From assembly GCA_046262295.1 (NCBI GenBank), contig JBHENC010000015.1:16700-80699 (forward strand): 64,000 nt of DNA. Reading direction: 5' to 3'. This document shows positions 34,382-64,000 of this stretch, piece after piece. The notes under the pieces are model-generated. The model was given only the letters and a program-made list of their open reading frames with translations, had not been told where the DNA came from and searched no databases. How positions within the stretch are numbered: position 1 is the first letter of the stretch; every line of letters starts with the position of its first letter. This DNA comes from Pyrinomonadaceae bacterium (GTDB lineage Bacteria; Acidobacteriota; Blastocatellia; Pyrinomonadales; Pyrinomonadaceae). The position numbers were made by a program, and so were the translations under genes.

Positions 34382-34457
<76 letters not shown>

Positions 34458-51669: not shown

Positions 51670-51742
51670 TGAGCCGAGTAGGGATCGAACCTACGACCCG
51701 CAGATTAAGAGTCTGCTGCTCTACCAACTGAGCTATCGGCCC
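51670..51742 (-). tRNA. tRNA-Lys (anticodon CUU), CCA not encoded
   Basis: Reverse complement is GGGCCGATAGCTCAGTTGGTAGAGCAGCAGACTCTTAATCTGCGGGTCGTAGGTTCGATCCCTACTCGGCTCA. The cloverleaf folds, with anticodon loop CTCTTAA. Confidence 0.93.
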
Positions 51743-52176: not shown

Positions 52177-54291
52177 TTGCAAACAATCATGCCCCCCATC
52201 AACACCAAATCTATTATTTCGCAAGCCCTACGCAAATGGTACGCGGCGCTCGCGGTTGCGCTCGTCCTCGTCGTCTGGGGACTTCTCGCGCTGGCGATGC
52301 TTCCGTCGAAGGATTCCGCCGGATCATACGCCACACGCCCCTATGGTTTAACTACCGGTTTGGAAAACTACGCGCTCGACCAGCTCTTTCAATTGCGCGA
52401 CGCGCTGCACCCGGATCAGCGCCAACGCGGGCTGAATGAGCCGATTACGATCATCGGTATTGACGAAAAATCCATTAAAGATTCCAACATACGGCTTCAG
52501 AAATGGCCGCGCAACTGGTATGCGCACTTGATTGACCGTGCCAGCACAGGCGGCGCGGGCGTCATCGGCGTTGACGCTTTTTTAAGCGAAGCGGGCGGCC
52601 TCTCCGCCGATGACAAGGCCTTCGATACACAACTCGCCGAAACAATTAGCAACGCGGGCAACGTGGTGCTCGCCTCGAAGCTTGAAGCGGGTGGCTATCA
52701 AGAGATCGCTCCGCTGCCGATGTTTACCGAAGGCGCATACGCGACAGGGTTCGCCGATATGATCGTTGACAGCGACGGCTTTGTGCGCAGTTCGCAGTTG
52801 GTCAAGTACATCGGCGAAACCAAGCAAACGGAGTTTAGCTTTGCCGTGCGGCTTGCCGAAGGATACAGCGCCGCGATGGGAAAAGAAGATCAGGTGTTGA
52901 AACCGACGCCTGACACGAAGGGCTTCATGTTCGGAGATCGCGTGTTGCAATTGCGCACGGACACGGCGCTACAGCTCGATTTTCGCGGGCGCTCGCCTGC
53001 TTTTCGCTATGTTGCGGCAGGCGATATTTTGTGCGCGGCGGGCGACATTCCATGCGAGACCAAACCGAACCTCCCGGATGATTTATTTCGTGACCGGATA
53101 GTTTTAATCGGCGCAAGCAATATTGACGCGCCCGATCTGTTCGCCACGCCCTTTTACGAACCGTCAATTCTGGCGCGCACCTTCGATTGGCAGTTGCCGC
53201 TCGTGCCGTCGCGTATGCCCGGCGTGGAGATTCACGCGAATTCTATCGGAACTATTCTCTTCGGCAGTTCGCCCGCCCGCCCGCGTTATCTATGGCAAAC
53301 GCTCTCGCTTATTGTGCCGCTCGTGCTGGTGGCGTTGGCAGTCTTTTTGCTACGCGCTTTCTGGGGTTTATCAGCCGTCATTGCCGCCGCCGTCGGCTCG
53401 CTCATCGTCGCATCATGGGCGTTCAACGCGCACGGATTGATTCTGCCTTTAGCGGACGCATGGCTCGGCATGGTCGTGCTCGCTCCGCTGGGACTCAGTA
53501 TGCGTTACGCGCGCGAGCGTGCGTTGCGCGATGAAAAGGAAGCGGAACGCGCGCAGATTATGGACATCTTTGCGCGCTGCGTTTCGCCGGAAGTGGCCGA
53601 TACTTTATGGGAGCGGCGCGAGCGGTCTATCTTCGAGGGCGAGCGCCGCGTCGTCACCATTATCTTCACGGACATACGCAGCTTCACGACGCTCTCCGAG
53701 AAACAGTCCTCAGAGGTCGTCGTTAAGTGGCTCAACGATTACTTCGGGCGCATGGCCGTGATTATTAAAGAGCACTGCGGACACATCAATAAATTCATCG
53801 GCGACGGCCTGATGATTGTCTTCGGCGCGCCCATCGCCCGCGGCGATGAGGAAGAAGCGCGCGCGGCTGTCGCCTGCGGACTGGAGATGTTGGAAGCTGT
53901 CGAGCGCATGACCGCCGAATGGCAAGCGCAGGATGCGGCGCTGCCGGAATCGGAACGTCGCCCCGTCGTCAAAATCGGCGTCGGCATTCATTCAGGCATC
54001 GCTACCTGCGGCGTCGTCGGAGCCGAACAAAGGCTTGAGTACACGGTGATCGGCGATACCGTAAATTTGTCTGCGCGGCTTGAGTCGGAAACAAAATCGT
54101 TCGGCGTGCCGATTTTGATTTCAGATGCGACGGCGAACTTAATCGGCGACAAATACCAAACGCGCGCGCTCGGCGAAGTGAAAGTGAAAGGCAAAACTTC
54201 GGCGACGAAGGTTTTTACGGTCGAGACAAACGCACCTGCCGCTGTCGCCGAAGCTTCTGCCGAAACAGTTTCGCTCGCGGCATCCCACTAA
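52177..54291 (+). CDS. CHASE2 sensor domain - class III adenylate/guanylate cyclase
   Basis: 704 aa. It has an N-terminal TM segment, a large extracytoplasmic region, a TM cluster, and then the cyclase domain (VTIIFTDIRSFTTLSE, KFIGDGLMIVFGAP, EYTVIGDTVNLSARLES). Confidence 0.85.
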   Translation: MQTIMPPINTKSIISQALRKWYAALAVALVLVVWGLLALAMLPSKDSAGSYATRPYGLTTGLENYALDQLFQLRDALHPDQRQRGLNEPITIIGIDEKSIKDSNIRLQKWPRNWYAHLIDRASTGGAGVIGVDAFLSEAGGLSADDKAFDTQLAETISNAGNVVLASKLEAGGYQEIAPLPMFTEGAYATGFADMIVDSDGFVRSSQLVKYIGETKQTEFSFAVRLAEGYSAAMGKEDQVLKPTPDTKGFMFGDRVLQLRTDTALQLDFRGRSPAFRYVAAGDILCAAGDIPCETKPNLPDDLFRDRIVLIGASNIDAPDLFATPFYEPSILARTFDWQLPLVPSRMPGVEIHANSIGTILFGSSPARPRYLWQTLSLIVPLVLVALAVFLLRAFWGLSAVIAAAVGSLIVASWAFNAHGLILPLADAWLGMVVLAPLGLSMRYARERALRDEKEAERAQIMDIFARCVSPEVADTLWERRERSIFEGERRVVTIIFTDIRSFTTLSEKQSSEVVVKWLNDYFGRMAVIIKEHCGHINKFIGDGLMIVFGAPIARGDEEEARAAVACGLEMLEAVERMTAEWQAQDAALPESERRPVVKIGVGIHSGIATCGVVGAEQRLEYTVIGDTVNLSARLESETKSFGVPILISDATANLIGDKYQTRALGEVKVKGKTSATKVFTVETNAPAAVAEASAETVSLAASH

Positions 54292-54407
54292 ATTTTGCGA
54301 TGAGCTTTGCTTAAAGAGGCGCAACGAGCGTTTCGCGGTTTGCTCATGGTAACGATAACTTGGAAACAATACTCTCCCGATAAAAGAAGTTAAGGAGATG
54401 ACATACA

Positions 54408-55223
54408 TTGATGTTGCATTTGTCAGGTTTAACTAATTTGTGGCGTGGGGCACGCGCGATCAAGATCGTTTGTGCCTTGCTTCTGTGCGCCGTGTGTTTG
54501 ACGGTTGTGGCCGGTATGACAGCGCGGGCGCAAGGGGCGGCAGCAACAGGGCAGGGAAATCAAGCGGCCGCACCGCGCCGCCCGCTGCCGAAGCCTGCCG
54601 GAGGCGCGCGTGGTTTTGAACAGTACGGCGGCGAGCGCGATGCGTCGAGCCGTTTAGTCGCCTCGGGCGCAACGCGCAGCGGCGCTCCCGCGAGCCTCAA
54701 GGCTATCGCACCGATGGAAGGACTCGCCTACGATGCGCGTCCTTTCTTCAAGTGGACGGCCATCAGCGGCGCGAAGACTTACCGCTTCGTGTTGCGCGAG
54801 GCAAATAATCCTTCCGCACCGATTGTTTACCAGACGGACTCGGCGACGCCGCAGCTTCTTTATCCGGCGAATGCCCCGACGCTCGCGCCCGGCAAACTCT
54901 ACACGTGGCGCGTTTCGACCGCCGGTACGCTTGAAAGAAAAGTCGGATCGCCGGTGACGTTCTTTATTCTCGCGGGCGAAGATGCGATGGAAGTCCGGCG
55001 CGCGCTGGAGAAAGCGAATCTCGTTGCGCCGAAGAGCACGGCCGAACACATTAGTCAGGCGCAAATCTTCGAGCAATACGGCATCTGGTATGACGCGCTA
55101 CGTGATGCGAGCGAAGCCGTCAACGCTAATCCGCAGGACACGGCGGCCAAAGCCTATTACGATTCCTTGGTCGCGCGCCTTAGTGAAGCGGAGAAGGCGA
55201 AACAGGAAAACGACGGACAGTAA
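54408..55223 (+). CDS. Secreted protein with a DUF928-like core and a helical C-terminus
   Basis: Signal peptide. PFFKWTAISGAKTYRFVLRE...LYPANAPTLAPGKLYTWRVS matches the P-x-F-x-W...Y-x-F-x-L...Y-x-W-x-V pattern I associate with DUF928. Confidence 0.45.
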   Translation: MMLHLSGLTNLWRGARAIKIVCALLLCAVCLTVVAGMTARAQGAAATGQGNQAAAPRRPLPKPAGGARGFEQYGGERDASSRLVASGATRSGAPASLKAIAPMEGLAYDARPFFKWTAISGAKTYRFVLREANNPSAPIVYQTDSATPQLLYPANAPTLAPGKLYTWRVSTAGTLERKVGSPVTFFILAGEDAMEVRRALEKANLVAPKSTAEHISQAQIFEQYGIWYDALRDASEAVNANPQDTAAKAYYDSLVARLSEAEKAKQENDGQ

Positions 55224-55306
55224 ATAATCGCAGAGGATTTTCCGTCCCCGGACTGGTAGGCCGTAAGCCTTCGTTTTGTCGGAATACCGATGTGTGAGGC
55301 CGATTA

Positions 55307-56731
55307 TTACAGGCCGAAGAAGCGTTTGATAGAGTTGAGCAGTCCGGCAGTCTCTTCGGCAGTTTCCTGCACGCTCTTTGAATTTGCGGCAAGGTGAGTG
55401 CGCCGTTCAGCGACGATCTCGCCAAGCGAATTGACAAGCTGTGGATTCGTGTCGAACAAAAGCTTCAACGCTTCGTGGCCGACTTCCAGCACTTCCGTTT
55501 CGTCTGCGGCGACGATGTTGGCGGTGCGCGGTTCGCCCGTCAATAATGCCATCTCGCCGAAAAAGTCGCCTTCGTCAAGCTGTGCGACGGTGAGCGGCGT
55601 TCCGTTATCGCTGATGCGGACTTCGACGCGCCCGCGATGCACGACGAACATGGACGAGCCTTCATCGCCCGCGTGGATGACGGTTTCGCCCGGCGCGTAG
55701 ACGTGGCTGGCGACGGCGCAGGCGAGCTTGCCGATCTCCTCCGGCGAGAGCGGCGAGAAGATGTCTACGGCTTTTAGCCGCTCGATGACTTCGTCGCCGT
55801 CCTTCGCCGCACCGTCCTTCGCCTCCCGCGTTAGATTGACGGTCAGCGTCGGCGAAGCAAACTGTAGTCTGGCGCGCTGGAAGGCATACCACACGCGCTG
55901 CCTGATGAGCGCATCCGTATCGTTGTAGCGCGCGAAATCGTCTAGCCAGTATTTGATCTCATACTCGACTTCGCTGCCCGCAAGGTTCTTGATGCGGACA
56001 ATGGGCGTCAGCTTTTGCGAAACGTTTTCCGTCTTGCGCACGGCTTCGCGCACAACTTTAATCGTCGTAACGGGCGAATCCGTATACGGGGCGCTGAATG
56101 AGACGGTTCGCGCGTTCAGATTAGTGCGCGGGCAGACTTCGATGGATTCCTTGGCGATGTTGCTGTTGCTGACAAGGACGATGTGGTTGGTGAAAGTTCT
56201 GATCTTGACGGCGCGCCACGTAATGCTTTCGACGACGCCCGTCCACTTGCCGACCATAATGACATCGCCGACCAGAAATGGATTGTCGGCATGAAGCGAG
56301 ACGCCCGCGAAAAGATTGCCGAGCGTATCTTGCAGCGCCAGACCGAGAATCACGCCGAAGATTGCGGAAGTCGTAAAGAGCGCGCCGAGTTGAATTGTCG
56401 GATAGAAAGTTTGGACGATCAGGGCGAAGAGCGCCACATACGCGATGATTGAAAAAATATTGCGGATCAGATTCGGCGCTTCATAGCCTTTGCGAAGGCG
56501 AAAAAAGAAGCTGAAGATGATTTCGTTGGCTAAGCGCACAAACACGAACGCGAGCGCAACGAAGGCCAGCGCCTCGGCCGCGTTTATGGTTTTCCCGTAT
56601 AAGCCGGTAGATGCCGGATATTTCGCGTAAAATGTTGGCGCTAAAGCGTAAAGCGCAGTAACCGCGAGTCCGGCCAGCAGGCTGGCGATGATCGGGAAAG
56701 TTAAGCGGCGTTTGAATTGAAGGAGATTCAC
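55307..56731 (-). CDS. MscS-family mechanosensitive channel with a C-terminal cyclic-nucleotide-binding domain
   Basis: 474 aa with an MscS core (GDVIMVGKWTGVVESITWRAVKIRT) and a cNMP domain (FFGEMALLTGEPRTANIVA). Confidence 0.85.
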   Translation of the reverse strand: MNLLQFKRRLTFPIIASLLAGLAVTALYALAPTFYAKYPASTGLYGKTINAAEALAFVALAFVFVRLANEIIFSFFFRLRKGYEAPNLIRNIFSIIAYVALFALIVQTFYPTIQLGALFTTSAIFGVILGLALQDTLGNLFAGVSLHADNPFLVGDVIMVGKWTGVVESITWRAVKIRTFTNHIVLVSNSNIAKESIEVCPRTNLNARTVSFSAPYTDSPVTTIKVVREAVRKTENVSQKLTPIVRIKNLAGSEVEYEIKYWLDDFARYNDTDALIRQRVWYAFQRARLQFASPTLTVNLTREAKDGAAKDGDEVIERLKAVDIFSPLSPEEIGKLACAVASHVYAPGETVIHAGDEGSSMFVVHRGRVEVRISDNGTPLTVAQLDEGDFFGEMALLTGEPRTANIVAADETEVLEVGHEALKLLFDTNPQLVNSLGEIVAERRTHLAANSKSVQETAEETAGLLNSIKRFFGL

Positions 56732-57031
56732 AGCAGCAATCTCGCGCGAAAAAAGAAGAACGCGCCACAGGGTAGTTACAGGATGGAAGAACGTCGCGGC
56801 GATTGTCCGGCCGCATTATGCGCGAGGGTTATACCTATGATCAAGACTTCTATTATAAACACGCTTCGCCCGCGCGTGAACCTTTGGGACGCTCGCCGTG
56901 CAAACACTTTTATCGCTGCGCCGCTTTGCGCCGACACCAGCCAGCAACTAGAATCAAAATCTTTTCGTCGCGCGTGCTCGAAAACTTTGCTCTTGATCTT
57001 ACACTAAGAGAGGTCAACAAAAGTATCCCCC

Positions 57032-57808
57032 GTGAAAATCCAACTCTTACCCAGCACCTTTGACATGAAAGGCTGCGCCACGCCGGAACAGCGGCTGACC
57101 TCTTTCGTGATTGACAACTCGGTCGTCATAGACGCCGGAAGCATTGCGATGGCGCTCAACGACGAGCAGCGCAACAACATACGCGATATTATCATCTCTC
57201 ACCCGCATATTGACCACGTCGCCTGTTTGCCGATCTTCATTGACGATCTTTTTGCGAGTCTGGAAGAGCCTGTGCGTGTTCACGCCACGCAGGAAGTGAT
57301 CGAACTGCTGGAGCGCGATATCTTCAACTGGACGGTCTATCCGCGTTTTTCGCAATTAAAGAATGATCGCTGCAATGTGATGGAGTATGTGCCGTTTCGC
57401 GTCGGCGAAGAGTTTCAGGTAAAGCACCTGCGCATCACCGCCGCCAACGTCAATCATTTTGTGCCGTGCGTCGGTCTGGTAGTTTCAGATGCTAAAGCGA
57501 CGGTGGCATTTACATCCGACACGGCGGAGACCGAAGGCTTCTGGGAAACCGTCAACAGCGTTGCGCCGCTCGATGCGCTCTTTATCGAAGCCTCATTCCC
57601 GAACGAATTCGAGAAACTCGCCGCCGCCTCCGGCCATCTGACTCCGCTCACGCTCAGCCGCGAACTCCTTAAACTTATGAGCGTGCCGCCCGATATTCTC
57701 GTCGTACATCTCAAGCCGAGTTACCGCGACCGAGTAATAAGCGAACTCGAAGCCCTCAAGATCAAGGGGTTGAGCGTGATGATGCCGGGGCAGATTTATG
57801 AATGGTAG
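57032..57808 (+). CDS. Class II 3',5'-cyclic-nucleotide phosphodiesterase-like metallo-beta-lactamase-fold protein
   Basis: 258 aa with a GTG start. Has the HPHIDH metal motif and an N-terminal LTSFVIDNSVVIDAGS. The context is the cyclase and the cNMP-gated channel. Confidence 0.65.
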   Translation: MKIQLLPSTFDMKGCATPEQRLTSFVIDNSVVIDAGSIAMALNDEQRNNIRDIIISHPHIDHVACLPIFIDDLFASLEEPVRVHATQEVIELLERDIFNWTVYPRFSQLKNDRCNVMEYVPFRVGEEFQVKHLRITAANVNHFVPCVGLVVSDAKATVAFTSDTAETEGFWETVNSVAPLDALFIEASFPNEFEKLAAASGHLTPLTLSRELLKLMSVPPDILVVHLKPSYRDRVISELEALKIKGLSVMMPGQIYEW

Positions 57809-57913: not shown

Positions 57914-60900
57914 TTACTTTTCCCCGTCGCGGCGGCGCGACCGGCGGCGACTTCTTCGCCAGCCGACGGCACAGGCGAATAGCCCGAGTCCGCCGATTAT
58001 CGCGGTGGTCTTCATGCGATGTTGCGGAGCCGAAAGACTCAATGAAATCGCTTTGAGTTTCTCGGCGGGCGAGCTGATTGCCTTGATCGTCGCGCTCTTT
58101 GTCGTGGTGCGTGGCGCGTTCGGCGGATCGTCGGAGACTGTGAACAGCTCGCCGCCGAGCAGATACATACGCTGCATCTCTTCGAGCGTAAATGGACGCG
58201 CACCACGACGGCCAAAGACGGCGGTTTGATTGCCGCTTTCATCAACGGCGCGGTCGCGGTCGAGTCCCTTGGAGATATAGAGCGCCTCGCCTTTGGTTTT
58301 GAAGGTTGAAATCAAACGAGGCTCGGGGCGCGGGCTAAATCCTGCATAGGTCGCCATCGTTTCGGGCGAGGTGATTTGCAGAATGCGCAGACCGTTTTTG
58401 CCGTCGGCAACATAAGCGAAGGCGCTCGCGTTGGTCATCGCAATCTTAACGTCGTGCGCATCCGTGATTTTGCCGTCGGCATCAAACATCTGATCGAGGC
58501 GTGGCTTCTCCGGGCGCTCCACGTTGATAATCGCCACGCCTTCTTTGCCGTTGGCGACGTAAGCGTAGGTGCGCGCGACGTAGACGCTGAGTGCTTCCTT
58601 GAGCGGCACGCCCGCGCCTTCGACGAGGCGTGCGCGTTCGGGCTTGGTGATGTCAACCACCTTCAAGCCTTCTTCGTCAACGACGAAACCGTAGCGGAAT
58701 TGCACGGCGAAGGCACGCGGATTCTTGAGCGCGGGCGCAGTAATCTGCGAAACGGTCTTCGGTTCGAGCGGGTTGTTGATGTCAACGACGAAGAGTCCCT
58801 TTTCGGTGGTGATGTAGGCGTGCGTGCCCGCGATGGTGATGTTGTTTGCGCCTTCGAGCGCGCCGCCGGGATTGAACGCGCCGTTTGGATGCTTCGCCGG
58901 ATCGAGCGCGCGTTTCAGGTAGTTGTTCAAAGGATCGCCGTCGAGCAGCGTCGCGGCGTTGACGAGAATCAAGCCTTCGTATTTGTCAACGACATACAGG
59001 AAAGCGTAGAGCAGGTGAATCGGCTGCTCTTCATTGATGGGGTTGTGCGTGCGTGCCGGATCAACGCCGAGCGTCGTGGGCGCAGCGACGGCCGTTGCAT
59101 ACTTCGTCTTTACGTAGAATTTCTGGCCGAAGCGTGAAACGGGTGCGGTGGTGATGCGCTCACTAAATCCCTTATGATCTATCTGCGCGACATCGTAGAT
59201 GCGCAAGCCGCCTTCGCCTGCCGCGACGTAAGCGTATTCGCCGCGCAGTTGGACTTGCAGCGCGCGCGGATTGCCGACGTGCTCGAAAGCGGTCTTCAAT
59301 TCGCGCCCTTCTCGTTCAAACTTCGCGTAGCTGTCGGGATAAGCGACTTTGTGAAGCGTGCTGCCGATCACGGCCTGCGGTTCGGTGCGTTCCGTGACGG
59401 GCACGACTTCGAGCGCATCGTCGGCGGCGATATAAATATAGCGCCCCATGAAGTTGACGAAGTTTGTGCCCTGCAACATTAGTTGCGCCATCCATGCGTT
59501 GTTATCGTTGTTCTTCGAGACGTGGCAATCCGTGCAGCCCTTCGTCTCGGTCGCGCGAACGGTGTGCGGAACGTGCGTATTGAATGCCTGCCCGCTGTAA
59601 CCTTCGGAAGAGATGGTCTGCTGCTGCGAATAAATCCACTCGCGGTTTTGATTCTGCGAACTGACGAGAATTGCCGATGACGAACGCACCGGCGCAATGC
59701 GGTGGCCGGTCACCGTGCCGTCGCGCCCGAGCATAAAGACATCGTCGCGCAGCACTTGGAAATTATAGGTCGTGAAGTTGCGCGAATTATCGCCTTCGTT
59801 GTGGCGATTCGGCATCTTGCGGTTGGCCTGCATCGAAAGATGGCAGCCGAAACAGCTGGTCATCCAAGACGAGTGGCAGGCGTAACAGGTCATATCGCTG
59901 TCTTTGTGCGCGAGTTCCTTTTCGTCCTTCGGCACATCGCCCCATGTTTGATTGTCCGTGCGAATGGTTTTCGCGTAAGCGGATTTCTGGTTGTAGTCTG
60001 GATTGTCCGTGCCGTCCGGGTTCTTCGGCGTGACGGAGTCAATCGTTTGCTTGACTCTCCACCACATACCGGGTTCGACGACGGAGTTCTGGACGATCTG
60101 GCCTTCCTTTATCTGCACTTCCTTTTTCGTCGTGGGATCAATCTTCGTCAGGGGGCCGCGCTGGAAGATGGAGATGTGTTTGCCTTTGGCATCGAGCGCG
60201 TAATAGGTGTCAATCTCGTCGCCGCTCGCCTGTCGTTTGGTTAAATCGCGCCCGGCAGTGCGGTTAATGATCTTGCCGTTGAAGAGTCCCTGTCCGGCGG
60301 CGGGGCCACTGGTCATCAGCGTCGCGCGTTTTTGAATTGTGCCGTGACAATCAATGCAGCCGATTTCAATGGCGGCGCGCGGTTCGTTGTAGAGATTGCC
60401 GTTGCCGTGCGTGTCCTGACTGAAGTGGCAATCGGCGCAGTGCATTCCTTTCTCAAGGTGTATGTCCTTGAGATGAACGGGCATTCCGTCTTTAATTGAC
60501 TCGTTCTTTAACTCGTGGTTGTCCGAATCGCGGAAGGCGGCGGCTTCGCGCATCGTCTTGCCGTCGGGTTGCGGCATGACCTTGCCTTTGGCGTCAAGAA
60601 ATTCGCCGTTTCTATTTCTTTTGAAGACGGTGCGGAAAAGCCAGCCGTGACCGTGAAAGTCTGCGAGCTGCGTGCGCTTTAGTTGATCGTTGAATTCGGG
60701 CGTGCCGGTCTTGGCTAAGAAATCCCTGTCAGACCATTTGCCGCGAAGGCTCGACGCTTCCGGGTTATGGTTGAGCTTGTACTGTTCCTCATCCTGCGAC
60801 GGCGTGTGCTGCTTGTCCAGATACATTTTGTCGCCGTCTGTTTCGTTGTCCCACCACGTCATGCCGTAGTAGGTGGCGACCATATTTGTGCCGGGATGCA

Positions 60901-62152
60901 TATGGCAGACCATGCACTGCGAAGACGGAATGCGGCTCGTGAAAGTATGTTTGATCGGGTGTCCCGGTTCATCGCGCGGGATGCTTTGGTCGGCGGATTT
61001 GGTTGTGCCTTCGTTGCCGATGTCCGCGTAGATGGATGAATGCACGGGGCTACGATCATTGGCGTAAACGGTATGGCAGGCCGTGCAGCCGGAGGAACGG
61101 TAATCGCCCGGCCAATCATTCGTGCCCAGAAAGCTGAGCAGCGGATCGAGGAGGCGCGTTTTTTGCAGGCCGAGATAGACGGGGTCTGTGCGTTGCAGCG
61201 TGCCGAGTCCGCGGGGGCTTAAACCTTTGTCGGGCTTGCCGGGGTCTTCGTCTCTGTCAGGCAAACCGACTTCGAGCCGCCGCCGTCCGCCGCGTTCAAA
61301 GACGCGCAGCACATTGCCGGGCTGCGAAATCTCCCAGCGCGGAAGCGGTTGCAGAAAAGTGAGTATCCCTTTGAACTTCGTTTCCTGCGCGGTCGGATGC
61401 GGCAGCCGCCAGAGTTCCTGCGGCGCGCCGTCTTCCGAATAGCTTTCGCCGAAGCGCGTGTCTTTCAACGGATAACCACCGTTATTATAAAGCGCCGCGC
61501 CCCACAGCATCGCGCCGTGTACGTGCATACTCGATGCGACGTGCTCGGATTCTTTGGAGTGGCAACCGCCGCAGGTCTGGCGCGCCACGCGCATATCGCC
61601 CGGATTTACAAAGCGAACAAATTCATAACTCTCTCGGAGAATATCCGCGTTGGTGTTTTCCGGGTTGGAGCTTGTCGCTTTGCCGTTGCGTTGCCAACGC
61701 TCCGGGAAGCGTGGCTTAACGTGCGAATCTTCGGCGGTCGTCCCAAACGGATTGCCGCCATGACAGGCCGTGCAACTGAGTCCGATTCCGTCTTTGCCCT
61801 GCGCATCAATCTTCGCTTTGCCTTCTTGTCCCTGCGGCACGTGCATCGGTTCGATGTCTTTGTGACAGACGACGCAGCCCTCGACTTTGGGCGAGTTGTC
61901 ATCCGTCGCTTTCGCCGGGGCGGTGGCCGCCGTTGCGGTCGCTGTGCCGGACGCTGGCGCAGGTTTGGCGGACGGCGTCTGCGCATCGTCGGTTGACGCG
62001 GTTTCGCGTGAAGCGGTCGCGCCGCCTTTCGCTTTGACGATTGTGCCGGACGAGCGTGCGCCGATTAAGACGACGCTGAGCGCCAGCGCGATGACGGCGA
62101 GAAGCGAAACGATCTTGATGCGATTGATGGTGCTGATACGGTGCGGGTGCAT
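57914..62152 (-). CDS. Decaheme c-type cytochrome fused to an LVIVD-repeat beta-propeller, with a C-terminal TM anchor and a poly-Arg tail
   Basis: 1412 aa from [28 protein letters not shown], with a GAGGAAG ribosome-binding site. There are ten CxxCH motifs (CVVCH, CTACH, CGGCH, CTACH, CMVCH, CADCH, CIDCH, CYACH, CFGCH, CTDCH) at about 59522..61876. There are six LVIVD-like repeats ([93 protein letters not shown]) at about 58364..59257. The tail reads [25 protein letters not shown]. Confidence 0.85.
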
Positions 62153-62175
62153 AAAAAGCTTCCTCAAGAGAGGGT

Positions 62176-64000
62176 TTAGAATGTGAATCTGACTTGGGCG
62201 AAAAGGGAATAGAGCGGCTTGCGCGGATTGATGATGCTCGGCGCGCAATAGTCTATGACGTTTGCGGGACAGTTGCGCCCCTCGTCCGTAAAGATGTCGC
62301 GGAAGCCGCGTCCGGGCACGAGCGTCGCCGCGCCGAAAGTCAGCGTGACGTTGTTGATGAGCAGCGGGCGATAAGCGAGGCCGACGCTGTAATCAAAGCC
62401 TATGTCTTTGCGCACGCGCGGCTGAAAGAGTACGTACTTGAGAGATTCCGTTTTGTCGAAGCGCATATAGTTGGCGTTGATGATTACTTTGGCGCGCTGC
62501 GTTAAGTCTATATCAAGGCCAGCGTTGTAAATGTAGATACCCGGATTGACGAAGTTCGCCTGTCCCTGCGTTTTACTGCTGCGCAAGGAAGGTATAATGC
62601 TGTTCGGCTGAACAAGGCCGACGCCGGTTTGCACGAGCCGTATGCCCTGACGATTCCAGAAAGAGAATTGCCCGCCGATGAAATTCGGATCATCGAAGAT
62701 GGCATCGAATCCGGTGGCCTTGCCGTCGGTCGGGTTCTTGTCGCCGGAAGCGTAAAAGAAGGATGTGCGGAAGCGCAAAAAGTCTTTGTCGAGCGACGCT
62801 TCGACCGCGCCCATTTCCGCCCGGATGTGCGTGGGACGCCCGGCAATCGGGTTGCGGGTATCGCGTCCGAGGGCAACATAAAAAGAGTTCGTCAGATTGA
62901 TGCGCCCGACGTGACCATCACCGCTGAAGCCCAGGTAGCCGACGTTGACCGTATGCGGACGCACATCGCCGATCTGCGCGGGGCGCACGAGAAAACCGTT
63001 ACGGTCGAATTCGATGCCGCCCCGGTCGTTGTTGAAATGAAAACTTAGCTGCGCGGTATAGCCTTTTGTCAGAAAGTCTTGACGAAAGATATTGGCGATG
63101 TAGACATTCTGGCGGCGGCGGTCGAAACGATTGAGGCCGCTGTTGGTGTCTTTTTCGAGTTGCGCGAAATAGGCGGCGTTAAATTGATATTGGTTATTAG
63201 CGAAGCCGCCGAAGATGCGCGCGCCCAAGTTGTTATCTGAATAAATGAAGCCGCGAAAGTCCGACACGAAGGGCTGAATACCCGCGCGCACGGAGATAAA
63301 ATCGAAGTTGGCATTGGTGTCTTCGATCTTGGCTTCGGCGAAGGCTTCTTCGAGAGAGAATTGCGTATCGCTGCGATTATTGCCGCGCCGGACGTCAACA
63401 TTAATGTTTCCGGTTTCGCGCGTGCGTATGTAGTTCGGCACGCTGAATGTCGGAGAAATCTTGATCGCCCAGTTGCGTGGCTTGAAACTCGTGTCGCCGC
63501 TAAACATCTCGAAAGTGAATTGCAGTATGTTATTGGCCGCGAGTTGTTCGGGGCGACCGAAGAATTCGGAACTCACGGGCAGCGCGCTGTTCTGGCCTGA
63601 CGGAGTCGGCAGTCGCCGCTGCTCTATGCTTTCTGTCGCGGTGGCCGACAGAATCACAAAAACGCTGTTGCCGAAGAATGGATAATCGCCCTTCAGTTTG
63701 TTTTGATTATAAGGGTCTAACCAGTGTCCTTTTTTGAAAGGGACGTCGCGCCCGCGCGCGCCTTTGTCGCCGTAGCGGTCGTATTCCGGGAAGCCTATGC
63801 GCCAGCGGTCGCGGACGGCGCGGCGGTTTGGCGCAATCTGCGGTTCGGACGGCACGGTAACGCCCCCGGCATAACCGAGCGGCGCATCCGGCGTTTCAGG
63901 ATTGGCGGGAAGCAAACTTGTAGAAGTGGCAGCGGCGGCCGGAAGGCGGGCGGTTTCGCTGGTCTTCGGCATGACGCCGCTTTCTTTCGCGTCAGACTTT
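62176..64000 (-). CDS. Putative outer-membrane beta-barrel protein; 5' end lies beyond the window
   Basis: More than 600 aa and rich in alternating aromatic/polar strands. It ends ...[11 protein letters not shown] (aromatic C-terminal residue typical of OMPs). The reading frame stays open upstream of the listed Met to position 64000. It stops 23 nt before the cytochrome gene. Confidence 0.55.

Follow-up and report, generated by a model that had tools for sequence, protein, structure and literature searches.

Can a beta-barrel gene and a multiheme cytochrome gene lying side by side be read as a porin-cytochrome electron conduit when the cytochrome is fused to a beta-propeller? The question is raised by two minus-strand genes at the right edge of a 64,000-nucleotide stretch (the window) of contig JBHENC010000015.1, part of a metagenome-assembled genome of the Pyrinomonadaceae (Acidobacteriota). 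A preliminary description had likened the pair to the MtrAB/PioAB conduits and suggested an undescribed redox machine. We find a c-type cytochrome that unites ten hemes and an LVIVD propeller in one chain, encoded behind a gene whose product is very likely an outer-membrane barrel, and the two genes keep this order in every testable locus. The match to the MtrAB/PioAB layout does not hold: the barrel is not of the MtrB/PioB kind, and the cytochrome is too large and too poor in hemes.

A two-gene operon at the edge of the window

Both open reading frames (ORFs) are read from the minus strand, with the cytochrome gene 3′ of the barrel gene. The barrel gene ends with a TAA stop codon at 62176-62178 and the cytochrome gene starts with the ATG at 62152, so that the tight linkage described earlier, with 23 nt between the genes, is borne out. 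The spacer reads ACCCTCTCTTGAGGAAGCTTTTT, and its GAGGAAG run lies 8 nt 5′ of the cytochrome ATG. The pair is composed as follows.

62176..64000, minus strand: 3′ part of the barrel gene (1.8 kb; last 607 codons and stop), product 100% identical to protein P0121
62153..62175, minus strand: intergenic spacer of 23 nt with a Shine-Dalgarno-like run
57914..62152, minus strand: whole gene of the decaheme c-type cytochrome-LVIVD propeller protein (1412 aa and stop), product 100% identical to protein P0001

The operon had been thought to continue beyond the window, and only the 5′ end of the barrel gene itself does so. The barrel frame is open to position 64000, the ATG at 63972 encodes an internal Met, and the part past the edge codes for the signal peptide and the CarboxypepD_reg domain. 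Two relatives were used to read past this point, L001 (83% identical, with the same downstream neighbours) and L002. In both, the next gene upstream of the barrel gene is divergent, and the operon therefore consists of two genes. A scan for promoters and terminators downstream of the cytochrome gene found nothing.

The cytochrome carries ten conserved heme sites

The cytochrome falls into six parts, which are listed from the N-terminus.

62045..62152, minus strand: N-terminus, residues 1-36, with a basic n-region, ~20 hydrophobic residues and a conserved GARSS(A/G)
61889..62044, minus strand: Ala/Thr/Pro-rich low-complexity linker, residues 37-88, variable among homologues
59453..61888, minus strand: heme domain, residues 89-900, with ten motifs and an SH3-like beta insertion near residues 620-700
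58124..59452, minus strand: LVIVD beta-propeller, residues 901-1343, with an invariant motif at its end (Pfam LVIVD, AlphaFold2 and Foldseek)
58010..58123, minus strand: C-terminal low-complexity linker, residues 1344-1381, variable
57917..58009, minus strand: Gly-rich hydrophobic helix and Arg-rich tail, residues 1382-1412, membrane anchor or sorting-signal-like tail

The ten CxxCH motifs counted earlier in the 1412-residue product are present, at residues 93, 127, 194, 356, 413, 572, 599, 756, 767 and 873. Of its 21 cysteines, 20 belong to these motifs, a clustering far removed from chance, and all ten sites are kept in every aligned homologue (alignments of 34, 120 and 15 sequences). Together with the N-terminal signal sequence, the ten motifs identify the protein as a multiheme c-type cytochrome. 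Heme site 3 (C194) is a variable, non-canonical motif at a conserved position: the window protein has CGGCH (CX2CH), the consensus of 120 close homologues has CG..ECH (CX4CH) at the same place, and the CX4CH form also occurs in most Terriglobia-type homologues. Across classes ~338 residues, about a quarter of the protein, are near-invariant. Outside the motifs these include 12 His and 3 Met, candidate distal ligands in sufficient number to provide the sixth ligand for ten six-coordinate hemes. We found no CxxCK or other open-site heme motif in the cytochrome. At ~150 kDa the protein has an enzyme-like size, and its heme density is 0.7 per 100 aa.

Family searches did not place the heme domain. 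Besides LVIVD, Pfam returned weak c3/c7 signals, and a PDB search with the cytochrome gave cytochrome c7 noise. Among the NCBIfam matches, from which the DmsE/MtrA model was absent, ExtM scored 51.6 bits against a cut-off of 800; identity with ExtM, ExtN or ExtO (~21-52 bits against cut-offs of 200-800) was rejected, and these scores were taken as generic heme-motif similarity. A PDB profile search yielded marginal local di-heme matches to octaheme nitrite reductase (18 bits, E 0.0035) and NrfA, which cover hemes 1-2 and 6-7. Membership in the NrfA/octaheme nitrite reductase family was likewise rejected, because just these two short stretches match, CxxCK is missing and there is no full-length similarity. 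No characterised enzyme matching the cytochrome across its whole length was found in Pfam, NCBIfam, PDB or Foldseek, and every cytochrome-family cluster that carries a name is called "hypothetical protein". The literature searched (LVIVD with multiheme or cytochrome; Pyrinomonadaceae with multiheme) contained no description of a multiheme-LVIVD fusion, in agreement with the earlier suggestion of an undescribed redox machine.

An AlphaFold2 model of residues 86-1285 reached a predicted local distance difference test (pLDDT) score of 65 and a predicted template modelling score of 0.67, with a patchy heme domain. It is the most conserved stretches of that domain (~270-354 and ~761-899) that are modelled with least confidence and lack secondary structure. 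Such stretches might wrap around hemes as loops, or might take up their fold only in the presence of hemes or a partner.

A propeller and two hydrophobic termini flank the heme domain

The fusion of an LVIVD propeller to the hemes is confirmed by a match of 68.5 bits to the Pfam LVIVD model (PF08309; cut-off 20.2 bits, 2.9e-19). In the AlphaFold2 model this region consists of four-stranded blades, with pLDDT mostly 80-97. The preliminary description gave it six blades; the strand pattern of the model has seven in the modelled part and room for an eighth beyond, making the predicted propeller seven- or eight-bladed. Foldseek retrieved generic propellers of 7-8 blades, namely PorZ, WD40 proteins and cd1 nitrite reductase; the propeller dominates these matches, and they do not allow the heme domain to be compared alone. 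The NCBIfam choice-of-anchor B model matches the propeller weakly, at 25 bits against a cut-off of 100. The propeller contains no Cys, and just two of its His are invariant.

Residues 1-36 look like a Sec signal peptide, whose cleavage we infer, though an uncleaved signal anchor is conceivable; in distant homologues the signals are of the ordinary kind and look cleavable. The hydrophobic segment reported at the C-terminus is also present, as a Gly-rich helix with an Arg-rich tail that resembles a membrane anchor or a sorting signal. It is found in Blastocatellia and in a lineage with c3-barrel fusions, treated below. The homologue alignment shows no conserved motif, PEP or other, before this helix, and the PEP-, IPTL-, MYXO- and PVV-CTERM models all score the tails below cut-off. 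Two tails rise marginally above the cut-off of the LPXTG model (16.1 and 16.8 against 15.9 bits), through the helix-plus-basic part only. A sorting signal of the PEP-CTERM/GlyGly-CTERM type was rejected on these sub-threshold scores and the missing signature motif. The cytochrome has no lipobox. In this lineage the helix with its positive tail suggests tethering on the periplasmic side, and the simplest reading of the sequence is that the cytochrome would lie periplasm-side, tethered in some lineages; a processed signal for sorting to the surface is the less likely alternative.

The upstream gene probably encodes an outer-membrane barrel

P0121 is annotated with 723 aa; the full protein has 723 aa or more, and its relatives range from ~700 to 763 aa. 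Its annotated start (MGVVRDAAG) lacks a signal peptide, and all relatives have one ~35-40 residues further upstream; judged by these sequences, the annotated start probably lies too far downstream. In barrel relatives the order of parts is signal peptide, CarboxypepD_reg, a Lys/Thr/Pro-rich linker, a conserved segment and a ~560-aa beta-rich region. The CarboxypepD_reg model (PF13620) scores 45.8 bits on P0121 against a cut-off of 32.3, over a domain that lies outside the window and is most likely periplasmic. The segment before the barrel is very conserved and includes ...DPYNQ..LKGDYP. P0121 contains no CxxCH.

The general features of outer-membrane beta-barrels come together in this family: a signal peptide (seen in homologues), an antiparallel all-beta region and a C-terminal aromatic residue, since the window product ends in ...VRFTF and its homologues end in Phe or Tyr. 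An AlphaFold2 model built on a 33-sequence alignment shows 14 long antiparallel strands between residues 217 and 533 (pLDDT 60-79). When it was compared by Foldseek, all significant matches were outer-membrane barrels, with AlgE first, followed by OmpF, OmpC and OmpK36. The match to the 18-stranded AlgE fold has an E value of 1.4e-4, but template modelling scores of 0.26/0.38 on a model of low confidence (mean pLDDT 48.7); a barrel of ~18-20 strands is the probable prediction. A home-made count of period-2 amphipathicity in the strands was uninformative.

Sequence searches point the same way. An exhaustive search for the barrel family returned 1669 representatives (50% clusters), 449 of them at E<=1e-30. 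Weak matches to Alginate_exp (PF13372) occur in 5 of 69 diverse members (best 3.9e-5), and weak matches to DESULF_POR1, the NCBIfam model of the Desulfovibrio trimeric porin, in 10 of the 69. Alginate_exp gave no match above its gathering score for the window barrel or P0121, and for the barrel region of the window protein sequence searches of Pfam, NCBIfam and the PDB yielded no match (in the PDB, single-sequence and profile searches gave noise). MtrB_PioB matched neither the window barrel nor any of the 69 members. Taken together, these results argue strongly that the upstream gene encodes an AlgE/porin-type barrel of the outer membrane, as the earlier reading of the ...VRFTF protein had supposed. 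A non-barrel partner, unlinked genes and a known enzyme family matching over the full length had been named beforehand as findings that refute the proposal; none of them was found.

Barrel and cytochrome genes are inherited together

The genome scan covered one genome per species, and at least 589 species genomes carry a relative of the cytochrome. The best 80 of these genomes are all Blastocatellia, Pyrinomonadaceae or 'Chloracidobacterium' metagenome-assembled genomes. Among the genome loci with enough upstream DNA, 71 of 71 have the barrel gene directly upstream of the cytochrome gene on the same strand. Starting from a distant barrel homologue, a scan of metagenomes provided 80 further loci, and the decaheme-propeller gene, at 45-55% identity, follows the barrel gene in every one with more than ~450 bp of downstream sequence. 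The co-occurrence check proposed earlier thus finds the pair together, in the order barrel then cytochrome, without exception in ~137 of ~137 testable loci. A profile search with the cytochrome reached at least 7103 protein clusters at E<=1e-20 and extended to Terriglobales/Acidobacteriia; its named matches belong to Pyrinomonadaceae, Blastocatellia and Terriglobales. The two genes are co-inherited across the phylum Acidobacteriota and may form a two-gene envelope redox cassette, an assignment we make tentatively.

Some loci carry insertions between the barrel and cytochrome genes. By sequence appearance, those at L015:5384-6019 and L075:5103-5729 are a VapBC-like antitoxin and PIN-toxin pair, and other ORFs, one of them transposase-like, occupy L027:4693-5782 and L067:3880-4593. 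The pair therefore tolerates transcriptional splitting.

Some barrels are fused to a tetraheme domain

In three barrel-family members (P0246, P0260 and P0341) CarboxypepD_reg is replaced at the N-terminus by a tetraheme c3-type domain with four CxxCH. In the corresponding loci (L083-L097 and L151) the decaheme-propeller gene still follows the barrel gene. One of them, L090:7974-17088, has three extra cytochrome genes after the decaheme-propeller gene, encoding a tetraheme c3 of 165 aa and two multihemes of ~320 aa each that resemble c7/MtrC domains. These fusions tie the barrel family itself to electron transfer, which argues against an unrelated neighbour, and they amount to a natural experiment on the barrel's part in electron transfer.

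Neighbouring genes

The product of the divergent gene on the upstream side of the barrel gene is a secreted ~720-aa protein with HbpS-like (PF03928, heme-binding/degrading) domains; examples are L001:5048-7234 (-), L002:5207-7363 (-) and L080:1174-3378 (-). The gene adjoins the cassette in ~52 of 82 loci, in distant lineages at lower identity, and lies downstream of the cassette in L012, L035 and L069. Possibly the HbpS-like protein belongs to the module as a third component. In L002, genes for cytochrome c maturation by System II, namely ResB and a CcsA-type Cytochrom_C_asm, lie ~4 kb upstream of the cassette (L002:655-3830).

Beside the cassette, positions 52177-57808 of the window hold a cyclic-nucleotide signalling cluster; L001 has the same neighbours and L002 does not.

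52177-54291, plus strand: CHASE2-adenylate/guanylate cyclase
54408-55223, plus strand: DUF928 protein
55307-56731, minus strand: MscS-like channel with a cyclic nucleotide monophosphate-binding domain
57032-57808, plus strand: metallo-beta-lactamase-fold class-II phosphodiesterase-like protein

Two tRNA genes lie elsewhere in the window, at 51670-51742 and 34385-34457 on the minus strand. The remainder of the window has an ordinary chromosomal housekeeping look and includes FtsK, ComEC, Lnt, 6-phosphogluconate dehydrogenase and two-component regulators.

A possible mechanism and its rivals

We tentatively favour an outer-membrane channel or docking barrel that works with a periplasm-side decaheme-propeller oxidoreductase, a scheme in which we infer localisation, docking, electron direction and substrate. 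The barrel would provide both a passage through the outer membrane and a docking site, and the decaheme-propeller protein would stay on the periplasmic side, tethered in Blastocatellia by the long linker and the C-terminal helix. Its partner in electron exchange could be something small and redox-active that the barrel lets in, for example a metal ion, a shuttle of the quinone type or some other solute; in the variant lineages the exchange might instead be with the barrel-attached heme domains. Electrons would be passed to or from periplasmic carriers. A protein of ~150 kDa with 0.7 hemes per 100 aa does not make a wire threaded through an AlgE-sized barrel, and from size alone a cytochrome spanning the outer membrane inside the barrel is unlikely.

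Several observations weigh against this scheme. Neither a quinol-oxidising protein nor any other partner in the inner membrane is encoded in the cassette, and we recognised no metal or cofactor site in the propeller. Terriglobia-type homologues have ordinary signal peptides and lack the C-terminal helix or any other anchor, while the tail of the window protein has the three-part layout of processed sorting signals and its propeller weakly resembles the surface-protein family "choice-of-anchor B". Low overall confidence in the barrel model leaves strand number and lumen size unfixed. Many hosts are described as aerobic soil heterotrophs, which gives no clear pointer to a physiological electron donor or acceptor.

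Some of the same features would suit Mtr-like extracellular electron transfer (EET) at the cell surface. The cytochrome would be exported with its C-terminal tail serving as a cleaved sorting signal, its propeller would bind minerals, humic matter or partners, and a barrel with a heme domain, or with part of the cytochrome inside, would conduct. The generic CTERM/LPXTG layout of the tail fits this, at sub-threshold scores, as do the weak choice-of-anchor B match and the association of LVIVD repeats with the cell surface, in a report quoted in 10.1101/2022.05.06.490989. The c3-barrel fusions recall Cyc2, in which cytochrome and porin form one polypeptide, and Acidobacteriota clusters of a porin, an NHL propeller and a cytochrome have been read as EET machinery (10.64898/2026.05.27.727921). 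Yet no signature motif precedes the helix and there is no lipobox, neither protein gives an MtrB/PioB or MtrA/DmsE family signal, the window barrel has no heme motif, and heme density is far under that of known outer-surface cytochromes. We consider a surface-exposed system of this kind unlikely.

A soluble substrate is harder still to defend, though enzyme-like size and low heme density are what one would expect of a periplasmic enzyme acting on nitrogen, sulfur or peroxide species without EET. Catalysis would then take place in the propeller, as it does in cd1 nitrite reductase or hydrazine synthase, with the hemes just feeding it electrons and the barrel acting as a substrate-specific porin. 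AlgE-like barrels are solute channels, cd1 nitrite reductase is among the best Foldseek matches of the propeller, and hemes 1-2 and 6-7 marginally resemble octaheme nitrite reductase and NrfA. However, the cd1 match reflects generic propeller similarity, the propeller offers just a pair of invariant His, lacks Cys and shows no metal or cofactor site that we could recognise, and the hemes are without CxxCK or another open-site motif. Tetraheme c3 domains tethered to the barrel are also hard to explain by mere substrate passage, and an enzyme of this sort seems to us improbable. That the two proteins share no mechanism at all, with the barrel a general uptake or structural protein and the cytochrome an electron store or stress protectant that is merely co-regulated, would agree with the absence of direct evidence of contact between them and with the tolerated insertions, such as toxin-antitoxin pairs. 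An adjacency and order kept without exception over ~137 loci and deep divergence, and barrel-family variants fused to cytochrome domains, make this extremely improbable.

A bolder form of the channel-and-docking scheme is an independent, phylum-wide route for electrons over the outer membrane, in which the decaheme-propeller protein docks under or onto an AlgE-like barrel and the c3 fusions act as multiheme Cyc2-like porin-cytochromes. We regard it as doubtful. If such a route is real, much of Acidobacteriota, including presumed aerobic soil heterotrophs, would have an unrecognised capacity for electron exchange with iron, manganese or humic matter. Acidobacteriota are among the most abundant soil bacteria and their respiratory flexibility is poorly understood; the cassette is conserved and widespread in them and is labelled "hypothetical protein" in every source. 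Should it link the cell interior to external redox substrates, the assignment of iron, manganese and organic-matter redox cycling in soil to organisms would change, and the known ways of combining a barrel with a cytochrome would be joined by one that shares no sequence relationship with Mtr, Pio or Pcc.

Comparison with known systems

The pair shares with MtrCAB, PioAB and MtoAB (Shewanella, Rhodopseudomonas, Sideroxydans) a barrel gene adjoining a decaheme gene, co-inheritance of the two, export of both products and presumed electron transfer in the envelope. The parts differ. The barrel of MtrAB/PioAB belongs to the MtrB/PioB family and has ~26-28 strands, whereas the one described here looks AlgE- or porin-sized and is of another family. 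MtrA, a compact decaheme of ~330 aa with ~3 hemes per 100 aa, fits in its barrel; the protein of 1412 aa described here has 0.7 per 100 aa and a fused propeller, and is not of the MtrA/DmsE type. The outer lipoprotein cytochrome of MtrCAB has no counterpart. The analogy to MtrAB/PioAB therefore fails in membership and mechanism, although the general principle of pairing a barrel with a multiheme protein still applies.

Cyc2 joins heme to a small-to-medium barrel, and P0246, P0260 and P0341 likewise carry a cytochrome domain N-terminal to the barrel. A heme motif within the barrel polypeptide is confined to these three and missing from P0121. Cyc2 has one heme and the c3 variants have four, whereas the window barrel carries CarboxypepD_reg and no heme, and a separate decaheme-propeller protein is always encoded next door.

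Two genome-based predictions combine the same ingredients of outer-membrane barrel, beta-propeller and multiheme cytochrome. The Acidobacteriota 'EET1' of a preprint by Fiorito et al. 2026 (10.64898/2026.05.27.727921), which is from the same phylum, consists of an MtrB-like porin, an NHL/DUF5128 propeller 'scaffold' and a cytochrome; the Uet cluster of Tenderiales (10.1101/2022.05.06.490989) has NHL proteins and an undecaheme cytochrome. Both are known from genome prediction only. EET1 and Uet use three separate genes, with an NHL/DUF5128 propeller, an MtrB-like porin and compact, heme-dense cytochromes, whereas the propeller described here is LVIVD and fused to the cytochrome.

Taken separately, each half of the cassette has more distant counterparts. 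The barrel model is structurally closest to AlgE and OmpF/OmpC, and barrel-family members have weak hidden Markov model similarity to Alginate_exp and DESULF_POR1. The window protein differs from them in staying under every family threshold, in its extra N-terminal domain and conserved pre-barrel segment, and in lacking a polysaccharide-export context. The cd1 nitrite reductase, hydrazine synthase and quinohemoprotein dehydrogenases are also exported and join a c-type heme domain to a propeller, but with one or two hemes and a known propeller cofactor (d1 heme or pyrroloquinoline quinone), against ten hemes and no recognisable cofactor site here, and the sequence similarity is nil beyond the fold. 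The cassette is thus a variation on the porin-cytochrome theme outside the Mtr/Pio family, and it is real, widespread and uncharacterised.

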